Source of the DNA: Planctomycetota bacterium
GTDB taxonomy: Bacteria > Planctomycetota > Phycisphaerae > Phycisphaerales > UBA1924
Direction of reading: 5' to 3'
NCBI GenBank assembly: GCA_018242605.1
Contig: JAFEBP010000010.1
Location: 54,354 to 118,353, forward strand
DNA length: 64,000 nt
The number at the start of each line of letters is the position of its first letter. The stretch's first letter is position 1. This document shows, piece after piece, positions 28,337 to 45,209 of the stretch. The notes below the pieces were generated by a model. The model saw only the letters and a program-made list of their open reading frames with translations. It searched no databases and was not told the DNA's origin. The translations under genes were made by a program, and so were the position numbers.

Positions 28337-28367
28337 CCGAGCGCCACTCAAGGCGCTCGGTTTTTTT
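28337..28367 (+). terminator. Rho-independent terminator after the PrpD-family gene
   Basis: CCGAGCGCC (28337-28345) pairs with GGCGCTCGG (28352-28360) around loop ACTCAA, followed by TTTTTTT. Confidence 0.8.
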
Positions 28368-43397: not shown

Positions 43398-44519
43398 ATG
43401 GCCTACACCGTCCTCGCACGCCGATACCGCTCCCAGACCTTCGACGAAGTCGTCGGCCAGGAGCCGATCGCCCGCACGCTGATGAACGCCATCAAGAGCA
43501 ACCGCGTGGCGCACGCCTACCTGTTCGTGGGGACGCGGGGCGTGGGCAAAACGACGATGGCGCGGCTGTTCGCCAAGGCGTTGAACGGCGGCACGCCGGA
43601 GATCGACGACCTGATCATGCAGGGCCGCGAGACCGACACGATCGAGTTCGACGCCGCGAGCAACACCGGCGTGGACGAGGCCCGCGAACTGATCGCCAAC
43701 TGCGCGTACAAACCGCTGCGGGGCAAGTACAAGATCTACATCATCGACGAAGTGCACATGCTCTCGACCAGCGCGTTCAACGCGCTGCTCAAAACCATGG
43801 AGGAGCCGCCCGAGCACGTCAAGTTCATCCTGTGCACCACCGACCCGCAGAAGGTGCCGGCGACGATCCAGAGCCGGTGCCAGCGGTACGACTTCCGCAA
43901 CATCCCCACGCAGCGGATCGCCGAGCACCTGGAAGCGGTGGTGAAGCGCGAGGGTTCAACGGCGGACGAGGAGCTGATCTTCGCCGTCGCGCGGCTGGGC
44001 AACGGCTCGATGCGCGACGCGCTGAGCCTGCTCGACCGGCTCATGGCCTCGGGCGAGAAGCACCTGACCAACAAGGTGCTCGAGGAACTGCTCGGGCTGC
44101 CCGACCGGGCGGTCATCGGCCGCCTACTCGACGCCCTCGCCGAGGGCAAGCCGGGCCAGGCGCTCGAGCAGGCTTCCGAACTCATTCAACGCGGCATCTC
44201 GATCGATCAGCTCATCGAAGCGCTCGCGTCGCGGCTGCGGGACCTGCTCGTGCTCGCGGCGTGCGGACCGACCTCTCCGCTCGTGGAACTCTCCGAGCAG
44301 GCCAAGGCCGAGGAAGCCGCGCGGGCGACCAAGTTCGACGCCGCGGGGATCGTGCACATGATCGCGTTGTGCGAGAACGTGCAGCGCAGCGTGAAGACGA
44401 GCGCGGTGCCGCGAGCATTGGTTGACGCGTTGGTCGTGCGGCTGGCCCTGACGGAGAAGTTCGCCGACGTGACCGCCCTGGTGGCCGGGAGCCAGCAGGT
44501 GTCCGCAAAAAAACGCTGA
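43398..44519 (+). CDS. dnaX: DNA polymerase III subunit gamma/tau, zero-frame product (short, gamma-like)
   Basis: YRSQTFDEVVGQE, Walker A GTRGVGKTT, DEVHMLS and the SRC motif (QSRCQRYDF). The ORF ends GCA AAA AAA CGC TGA. Confidence 0.92.
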   Translation: MAYTVLARRYRSQTFDEVVGQEPIARTLMNAIKSNRVAHAYLFVGTRGVGKTTMARLFAKALNGGTPEIDDLIMQGRETDTIEFDAASNTGVDEARELIANCAYKPLRGKYKIYIIDEVHMLSTSAFNALLKTMEEPPEHVKFILCTTDPQKVPATIQSRCQRYDFRNIPTQRIAEHLEAVVKREGSTADEELIFAVARLGNGSMRDALSLLDRLMASGEKHLTNKVLEELLGLPDRAVIGRLLDALAEGKPGQALEQASELIQRGISIDQLIEALASRLRDLLVLAACGPTSPLVELSEQAKAEEAARATKFDAAGIVHMIALCENVQRSVKTSAVPRALVDALVVRLALTEKFADVTALVAGSQQVSAKKR

Positions 44520-44776
44520 CGGCGGGCGAGCAATCGCCACCACGCCCGCCGCAGCCAAGGCAGATCGCGCCCCCGCCGCCCGCCGCGCCCCCGCGGGCGA
44601 TCGCCCCGCCGGTTCAGGCGGCCCCGGTCGCGTCTGCGCCCGAACCGCTTCCCGCTTCCGCGCAACCCCCGCCGGGGGACGAGCGTCCCATCGCCGAGCA
44701 TCCGCTGGTGAAGCAGACGATGGAACTGTTGAACGCGAAACTAATCGGCGTGCAGCCACGGATGAAGAAAGAGTAA
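44513..44776 (+). CDS. dnaX: Putative -1 frame C-terminal extension of dnaX (tau-specific tail), reached by frameshift or slippage at the A7 run
   Basis: From 44513 the -1 frame is open for 87 codons to TAA 44774-44776. It encodes a Pro/Ala-rich linker followed by ...ERPIAEHPLVKQTMELLNAKLIGVQPRMKKE. Confidence 0.5.
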   Translation, partial: TLTAGEQSPPRPPQPRQIAPPPPAAPPRAIAPPVQAAPVASAPEPLPASAQPPPGDERPIAEHPLVKQTMELLNAKLIGVQPRMKKE

Positions 44777-44840: not shown

Positions 44841-45209
44841 ATGTTCGACAACTTCAAGGCGATGGGCGCCCTCGCGGGCCTGATGAAGAACAAGGAAAAG
44901 CTGCGCGAAGCCGGCGAGCGCGTGCGGGCGAAGATGGAGACCACCCGCGTGATCGGCGAAGCTGGCGCCGGCGCGGCGCGGGCGGTCGCGACGGGCTCGA
45001 TGCGGATCCTGGAGGTTGAACTCACCTCGGGGTTGATCGTGGGGATGGCGGCGGACGAGAAGACGCGGGCGCTGGCCGGCAATCTCATCGCCGAGGCGTG
45101 CAACGAAGCGATCCGCCGCGCGCAAATCGCCATGAAGGAGGCCGTTGACGAGGAAGCCAAGGCCTTGGGCCTGGACGGCATCCCCGGCCTGGAGAACCTG
45201 CTGCAGTGA
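44841..45209 (+). CDS. ybaB: YbaB/EbfC-family nucleoid-associated protein
   Basis: MFDNFKAMGALAGLMKNKEKL... and the typical dnaX-ybaB synteny. AAGGA SD is present. Confidence 0.85.
   Translation: MFDNFKAMGALAGLMKNKEKLREAGERVRAKMETTRVIGEAGAGAARAVATGSMRILEVELTSGLIVGMAADEKTRALAGNLIAEACNEAIRRAQIAMKEAVDEEAKALGLDGIPGLENLLQ

Follow-up and report, generated by a model that had tools for sequence, protein, structure and literature searches.

The dnaX locus

The window examined here is the whole 64,000-nucleotide (64-kb) stretch of contig JAFEBP010000010.1 (positions 54,354 to 118,353; assembly GCA_018242605.1) from a Planctomycetota bacterium of the order Phycisphaerales, and the subject is its dnaX gene. 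The reading frame of dnaX closes directly after a run of seven A residues (A7) and a tail continues in the -1 frame, an arrangement that very probably reflects programmed -1 ribosomal frameshifting with a polarity reversed relative to dnaX of Escherichia coli. The elements of the locus are as follows.

43398..44519, + strand: dnaX zero-frame open reading frame (ORF), 373 amino acids (aa), a gamma-like short product with clamp-loader domains I-III
44487..44491, + strand: Shine-Dalgarno (SD)-like GGGAG, 15 nucleotides (nt) 5' of the heptamer, with a second partial match, AGGTG, at 44496-44500, 6 nt 5' of the heptamer
44507..44513, + strand: slippery heptamer A AAA AAA, comprising the codons of Lys371-Lys372 and the preceding A, in the phase X XXY YYZ
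44514..44519, + strand: 6-nt spacer CGC TGA, which holds the zero-frame stop (44517-44519) of the short product
44513..44776, + strand: -1 frame extension, 87 codons by translation, followed by TAA at 44774-44776
44520..44551, + strand: candidate stimulatory hairpin, with 5' arm CGGCGGGCG (44520-44528), a 14-nt loop and 3' arm CGCCCGCCG (44543-44551)
44699..44758, + strand: conserved C-terminal module of the tail, HPLVKQTMELLNAKLIGVQP, supported by the hidden Markov model (HMM) of the tail end and by the synonymous-fraction test

Direct reading of the DNA and the ORF listing placed the ATG of dnaX at 43398 and its TGA at the end of the codons GCA AAA AAA CGC TGA, in agreement with the first-pass annotation of this stretch. 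The in-phase A7 heptamer was found where that annotation had put it, and translation of the -1 frame up to the TAA reproduced exactly the peptide that it had quoted. Residues 1-372 joined to the -1 extension form a tau-type product of 459 aa, the tail of which includes the peptides TLTAGEQSPPRPPQPR and QTMELLNAK. Pfam searches placed domains I-III of DnaX exclusively in the zero frame (DNA_pol3_delta2, 2e-36; DNAX_ATPase_lid; DNA_pol3_gamma3), and the NCBIfam model dnaX_nterm scored 385 bits against a cut-off of 250, as expected for an AAA+ clamp-loader protein of the DnaX family. The zero-frame protein is identical to MBS0197582.1, which is annotated as "DNA polymerase III subunit gamma/tau" with the 373-aa product only.

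Since the window has a G+C content of 67%, alternative frames are often open, and the +1 frame remains open for 121 codons past the stop, still longer than the -1 frame. The open -1 frame within the window is thus weak evidence for recoding when taken alone. Homopolymers of A or T with a length of at least 7 occur only twice in the window, the other being T7 at 28361-28367. AAA accounts for 21% of Lys codons in dnaX genes of the clade, yet AAA-AAA is near-universal at the shift site.

Conservation of the split gene in relatives

The fused 459-aa product was searched against 5.8 billion proteins and the best 120 matches were examined. These homologues, 69-79% identical to the query, derived from metagenome-assembled genomes of Phycisphaerae and Phycisphaerales (NCBI, JGI, ENA and Logan). 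All were 372-411 aa in length and covered at most 87% of the query, so that none of the best 120 homologues (0/120) represented a fused dnaX. The C-termini of the homologues were hypervariable over 10-30 residues, yet almost all finished with KK followed by zero or one residue.

At the DNA level, three loci were obtained from a scan of genome contigs and 80 from a scan of metagenomes guided by a clade-specific alignment of domain III. When the genome contigs were scanned with the whole N-terminal protein, generic AAA+ motifs dominated and just three close relatives were returned. The anchor motif HMIALCE overlooked approximately 12 loci, most of which were recovered with a broader pattern. An in-phase heptamer located exactly 10 nt before the zero-frame stop was found in 69 distinct DNA loci. 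Five further loci also carried an in-phase heptamer, bringing the total to approximately 75: L082, with the stop directly after the heptamer; L003, with the stop five codons on; L095 and L110, with the stop six codons on; and L134, one of those overlooked by the anchor motif. The zero-frame stop lay at +4..+6 in all loci scored (67/67), and the tail was in the -1 frame in every recoded locus. The same junction was present on contigs of 2.9-4.6 Mb, including one of 4.6 Mb.

The comparison with related genomes that the first-pass annotation had proposed thus revealed that both the A-run site and the frame split are conserved. That annotation had offered three explanations of the split: programmed -1 ribosomal frameshifting, transcriptional slippage and a miscalled homopolymer, A8 being the true sequence. 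Homopolymers are prone to error, and one additional A would fuse the two frames of the window. The miscall is nevertheless refuted because the layout is shared by approximately 75 distinct loci from independent assemblies, produced by many projects and assemblers and including the contigs of 2.9-4.6 Mb; moreover, no fused gene occurred among the 120 close homologues, members of the clade that do carry A8 still require a -1 shift, and the flanking signals are conserved. A sequencing or assembly artefact, or a recent inactivating frameshift that would make the gene a pseudogene, is on these grounds exceedingly improbable. As judged from the comparison of sequences, the frame split of dnaX is a real character of the clade and not a sequencing error.

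Database entries for members of the clade contained several irregularities. The distal part of the -1 tail on the 4.6-Mb contig (L161, 2757-3290; JGI 3300059092) had been called as a separate ORF of 177 aa with no Pfam hit, which illustrates how tau goes unseen in the annotation of this clade. Of the proteins P0071 and P0038, one bears the name "Holliday junction ATP-dependent DNA helicase RuvB" and the other has "Leptolyngbya sp. PLA1" as its stated source. Both labels appear to be wrong, the first being that of an AAA+ protein with a faulty annotation and the second that of a contig from a planctomycete which was binned with, or labelled as, a cyanobacterium.

The slippery heptamer

The heptamer was A AAA AAA in 62 of the 69 loci, G GGA AAA in five, C CCA AAA in one and C AAA AAA in one. 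The additional loci L095, L110 and L134 contributed three further instances of G GGA AAA. A marine subgroup among the A AAA AAA loci has a run of A8 that is still phased. The run never exceeded eight in the clade, and the reading phase was invariant. G GGA AAA occupied at least four separate places in a tree of domain III built by neighbour joining, and C CCA AAA was sister to one of them. Both variants retain X XXA AAA in phase and contain only four A residues, with no homopolymer. The window has the in-phase X XXY YYZ heptamer of -1 frameshifting cassettes of the E. coli dnaX type, on which both tRNAs can re-pair in the -1 frame. In L122 the sequence is GCC AAA AAA, giving C AAA AAA, versus GCA AAA AAA in the near-identical L121, L123, L124 and L126; this could be either a tolerated variant with imperfect re-pairing in the P site or a base-call error.

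The downstream hairpin

The first-pass annotation had advised looking for a hairpin or pseudoknot downstream of the heptamer, and a GC-rich hairpin was found at 44520-44551. Its 9-bp GC stem begins 6 nt past the heptamer, the minimum free energy is -27.1 kcal/mol (z = -3.5) and only one of 200 shuffled sequences was as good. The stem is extendable by GCUG/CAGC (44515-18 with 44552-55). The position falls within the interval of 5-8 nt 3' of the heptamer in which the stimulatory structure of a -1 frameshifting cassette starts.

Relatives were searched for stems with the start of the 5' arm limited to +5..+9. The stems measured 5-12 bp (median 8) and started at +7, corresponding to a spacer of 6 nt, in 49/63 loci; the mean stem score was 22.5 versus 13.4±4.2 in shuffles. 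An alignment-free analysis of 54 non-redundant loci anchored on the heptamer gave a mean pairing probability of 0.74-0.87 at +7..+16, with the heptamer unpaired (≤0.11), the spacer mostly open and a sharp onset of pairing at +7. Compensatory changes were present in all nine pairs of a loop-trimmed alignment, with 50 double-change cells versus 14±3 in shuffles. Sliding the register in this alignment lowered pairing from 90% to 35-67%, the percentage paired being inflated by the selection of the 3' arm register locus by locus. The diversity of the arms is illustrated by CGGCGACGGG/CCCGTCGCCG versus CGGCGTCGGG/CCCGACGCCG, and also by CCGCATCCG/CGGATGCGG and CGCCGACCG/CGGTCGGCG.

The upstream Shine-Dalgarno-like block

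In 46/69 loci the tetranucleotide GGAG was present at a distance of 7-13 nt on the 5' side of the heptamer; control windows of equal width gave 1-4 loci. Gly codons within this block were GGA or GGG in 83% of cases versus 39% elsewhere in dnaX (p = 4e-13). Since the rare Gly codons GGA and GGG are enriched there, the SD-like signal is a property of the nucleotide sequence.

The -1 frame tail

In the 59 loci for which the -1 frame could be traced to a stop, the tail measured 71-230 aa, with one outlier of 308 aa, and ended in a module with the consensus [DH]P[LV][VI][KRQ]xAΦExFxGxΦΦxV, also rendered as [DH]PLV[KR]xAxExFxAxΦΦxV. Within a 22-codon block, entropy over codon positions 1-3 of the -1 frame was 1.05/0.78/1.50, the variation being concentrated at the third position, and the synonymous share of codon differences was 31% in the -1 frame versus 11% and 6% in the other two. 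This pattern of codon variation indicates that purifying selection acts on the terminal module in the -1 frame and that the tail is real coding sequence.

The first-pass annotation had described the tail as that of a full-length tau-type DnaX and had proposed comparing it with DnaX C-termini. When this was done, an HMM of the last 60 tail residues matched the extreme C-termini of uninterrupted, single-ORF DnaX proteins that belong to other lineages of the retrieved set. Examples of the matches were Nitrospirales L058 (1e-11, residues 563-608 of 614), L007, L012 and L005, and also Nitrospira L027 and L060, Verrucomicrobia L030 and the deltaproteobacterium L072. By profile similarity, the terminal module of 25 aa shares ancestry with the C-terminal ends of ordinary DnaX proteins from several phyla. 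Searches of the tails against Pfam, including tau_4 and tau_5, and against PDB sequences gave no match. The tau-type character of the tail is upheld by the homology of the module and by selection in the -1 frame, but the tail is not complete. In the window, its 87 aa consist of a Pro/Ala linker and the 25-aa module, and a middle segment of approximately 100 aa is missing. This segment occurs in 40/59 recoded tails, and DnaX proteins encoded by a single ORF have it in many phyla (L004, 6e-12; L007; L005; Verrucomicrobia; Nitrospira; Firmicutes). The remaining 19/59 tails, at several separate positions of the tree, are without it. The window tail was compared with those of L081, L086, L117 and others for the segment, which was not found in a six-frame translation of the window.

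The first residues of the tail were almost always x-L-T-A (CTG ACG GCG) in all loci, the linker being otherwise hypervariable. The overlapping stop codon, together with the hairpin's 5' arm, appears to account for this conservation; a constraint at the protein level is an unlikely cause.

A gene caller annotated part of the tail of L161 as an orphan ORF, and long open alternative frames are common in GC-rich DNA; the tail could accordingly be viewed as a separate small gene, with its own start or translated by termination and reinitiation after the TGA, or as an unexpressed relic, with only the short DnaX in use. However, the -1 frame of the window contains no start codon before GTG at 44708, which leaves an ORF of only 22 aa, and a start within 10 codons of the shift site was found in 9/59 loci and is not conserved. 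The selection on the terminal module in the -1 frame, and its homology to a C-terminus that is covalently attached to DnaX elsewhere, speak against both versions. A relic, furthermore, would not retain the geometry of heptamer, stop and hairpin across a deep clade. A separate gene or a relic is consequently regarded as very unlikely.

Probable mechanism of recoding

Of the three explanations originally offered, programmed -1 ribosomal frameshifting is strongly favoured on three grounds, namely the replacement of the heptamer by G GGA AAA or C CCA AAA, the SD-like block and the covariation of the hairpin, whereas transcriptional slippage is disfavoured. According to the favoured explanation, ribosomes that remain in frame would read Lys-Lys-Arg and stop at the TGA, producing the gamma-like subunit of the clamp loader (373 aa). 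Other ribosomes, a fraction of the total, would have tRNA-Lys paired to AAA AAA in both the P site and the A site and would slip by -1 on A AAA AAA. The slip would be promoted by the GC-rich hairpin that starts 6 nt downstream and, in most relatives, also by the SD-like GGAG located approximately 10 nt upstream. The shifted ribosomes would continue for 87 codons in the -1 frame and yield the 459-aa tau-type DnaX, the Pro/Ala linker of which would close with the conserved DnaX C-terminal module. We infer both the occurrence of the slip on the ribosome and its efficiency from these sequence elements. The tau subunit of E. coli couples polymerase and helicase, and by analogy the terminal module may tether one or the other.

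The alternative is slippage of the Thermus type, in which RNA polymerase adds one A to the run and a subpopulation of A8 mRNA encodes tau in a single frame. The precedent in Thermus is joined by the finding that approximately 90% of loci are homopolymeric with A7 or A8 and that outgroups carry A8-A9 at the same site, and for dnaX of reversed polarity in Chlorobi and Bacteroidetes (A7-A10) Antonov et al. invoke transcriptional realignment. On the other hand, at least 11 loci with G GGA AAA or C CCA AAA, in at least five positions of the tree, have only four A residues and retain the same tail, stop, SD-like block and hairpin. The length at which runs become prone to slippage is approximately 9 in many bacteria (PMC1088944). 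A run of about this length and independence of phase, by which transcriptional realignment would be recognised, were not observed, the window having A7, the clade a maximum of A8 and some lineages A4. The phase is invariant, although it is irrelevant to a polymerase and essential for the re-pairing of tRNA, and the tail is exclusively in the -1 frame. Finally, the covarying hairpin lies downstream and so would not yet be transcribed while the polymerase sits on the run. Taken together, transcriptional slippage is an unlikely explanation of the conserved layout.

Several observations nonetheless weigh against programmed ribosomal frameshifting. The SD-like GGGAG of the window, at 15 nt, is outside the range of 7-13 nt found in relatives. 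In E. coli, the heptamer A AAA AAA reportedly shifts less readily than A AAA AAG (PMC5009743). No Rfam family, including the DnaX element, matched positions 44380-44700 even at E ≤ 10. RNAalifold applied to a MAFFT alignment of the natural sequences returned no structure; since loop lengths vary from 6 to 72 nt, this result was put down to a failed alignment and was given no weight against the hairpin. The locus-by-locus choice of register noted above tempers the covariation, and slippage by RNA polymerase is possible as a minor contributor on A7 and A8.

Comparison with known systems

The layout resembles that of E. coli dnaX in that the same gene is involved, the site lies at the end of domain III and the two products would share a common N-terminus. 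The resemblance extends to an SD-like block, located in most relatives approximately 10 nt before the heptamer, to an A-rich X XXY YYZ sequence read by tRNA-Lys, a 6-nt spacer containing TGA and a GC-rich stem-loop. The E. coli cassette, checked in annotated genomes in which the Rfam element is annotated, is AGGGAG-10 nt-A AAA AAG-AGTGAA-stem. The essential difference concerns the TGA: in E. coli it is at +3..+5, within the -1 frame, and the shift leads to the short gamma, whereas in the clade it occupies +4..+6 of the zero frame and a shift would yield the long tau. The last codon of the heptamer is AAA, compared with AAG in E. coli, the Rfam DnaX element is not matched at the sequence level, and the tail is unrelated to the Pfam tau domains IV and V, the region that binds DnaB and Pol III alpha in E. 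coli. By its arrangement, the site would be a functional counterpart of the Rfam DnaX ribosomal frameshifting element and not a member of that family at the sequence level.

Frameshifting between orfA and orfB of IS3-family transposases often involves an upstream SD sequence and a downstream structure. These systems also share with the clade a heptamer of the A AAA AAG/A type and a shifted product that is the longer fusion (PMC5009743). Unlike these genes of mobile elements, dnaX is an essential housekeeping gene of replication, and the overlap of the ORFs is organised differently.

The reversal of the E. coli polarity, pointed out in the first-pass annotation, holds for both the layout and the homology of the tail, but is not new. 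Antonov et al. 2013 reported two-ORF dnaX genes of reversed polarity (GeneTack cluster COF_239165634; 17 genomes of 12 genera) in Chlorobi, Flavobacterium, Cytophaga, Capnocytophaga and Coraliomargarita, mostly with A9-A10 runs from which transcriptional realignment was inferred (PMC3711429). Atkins et al. 2016 regard reversed polarity as rare and mention, as unpublished work, an A7 case in Chlorobium phaeobacteroides with E. coli-like stimulators (PMC5009743); Sharma et al. 2014 likewise note reversed two-ORF dnaX. The genes described here agree with the cases of Antonov et al. in having two ORFs related by -1, a zero-frame stop directly after the A-run and a tau that requires recoding. This layout, together with a tail that is a DnaX C-terminus under selection, places them within reversed-polarity dnaX as defined in PMC3711429 and PMC5009743. 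They differ from those cases, which belong to other phyla and mostly have A9-A10, in having A7 (A8 in the marine subgroup) and non-homopolymeric heptamers, and in the documentation, across approximately 70 loci, of both an SD-like block and a hairpin with covariation. Among the papers searched, none was found linking dnaX recoding to Phycisphaerae or Planctomycetes beyond a taxon table. On the comparative evidence, the clade is a new, clade-wide instance of the known reversed-polarity dnaX, with unusually clean evidence pointing to a ribosomal mechanism.

The dnaX of Thermus thermophilus has, according to the work of Larsen et al. 2000 as far as it is relayed in PMC1088944 and PMC5009743, an A9 run; there the zero frame encodes tau, and gamma arises when slippage occurs in either direction. 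The clade shares with Thermus an A-run at the equivalent place of dnaX and, as predicted, two DnaX isoforms, the longer of which would here require the shift. Compared with A9 of Thermus, the run of the clade has fewer residues, keeps a strict phase, acts in one direction only and can be exchanged for G GGA AAA or C CCA AAA.

Evolution and significance

In the neighbour-joining tree of domain III, the recoded dnaX genes form one clade that is sister to the unshifted L120 and L146. These two loci and the more distant, likewise unshifted L006 and L009 have an in-frame A8-A9 (Lys-Lys-Lys) at the same boundary, with a stop in the -1 frame 2-6 codons on, a layout suggesting that they may produce gamma by recoding of conventional polarity, of the E. 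coli or Thermus type. If so, the site would be ancestral in Phycisphaerae. Deletion of a single nucleotide in an outgroup-like A8-A9 run would yield the layout of the clade. The combined proposal, that an ancestral recoding site of Phycisphaerae flipped polarity by a 1-nt deletion, that the tau:gamma ratio is set by translation and that the window tail is a minimal tau, is put forward tentatively.

If the proposal is correct, the essential tau would depend on ribosomal frameshifting, and the tau:gamma ratio, and hence the composition of the replisome, would be set and possibly tuned at the level of translation in the clade. The lineage of the window and at least three others would have cut the tau-specific part to a flexible linker and a 25-residue peptide, which would pinpoint this peptide as the element tethering polymerase or helicase outside the proteobacteria. 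Together with the outgroups of conventional polarity, the clade would illustrate how one indel swaps the isoform that needs recoding.

In every database entry seen, dnaX of Phycisphaerales is annotated as a "gamma/tau" protein of 372-411 aa, and the tail is missed or called an orphan ORF. Genomes of this order appear to be without tau because only the short product is annotated. With respect to mechanism, the published attribution of reversed dnaX is transcriptional realignment, whereas the natural swaps of the heptamer and the compensation in the stem favour ribosomal frameshifting in this clade. Dependence of an essential housekeeping protein on recoding is uncommon. The case represents no new category of biology. 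The clade may serve as a test case for tools that predict frameshifts and for the efficiency of frameshifting in a GC-rich, non-model phylum.

Other features of the window

The gene on the 3' side of dnaX is its usual neighbour and is given for context only.

44841..45209, + strand: ybaB/ebfC (Pfam YbaB_DNA_bd, 5e-9)

The only tRNA of the window was also noted.

21809-21886, + strand: tRNA (Rfam, 46.5 bits), with approximately 3 extra nucleotides in the anticodon arm

ARAGORN labels this tRNA "tRNA-???" with a four-base anticodon, ttgg. It could have an expanded anticodon loop or a small insertion, or could be a pseudogene.

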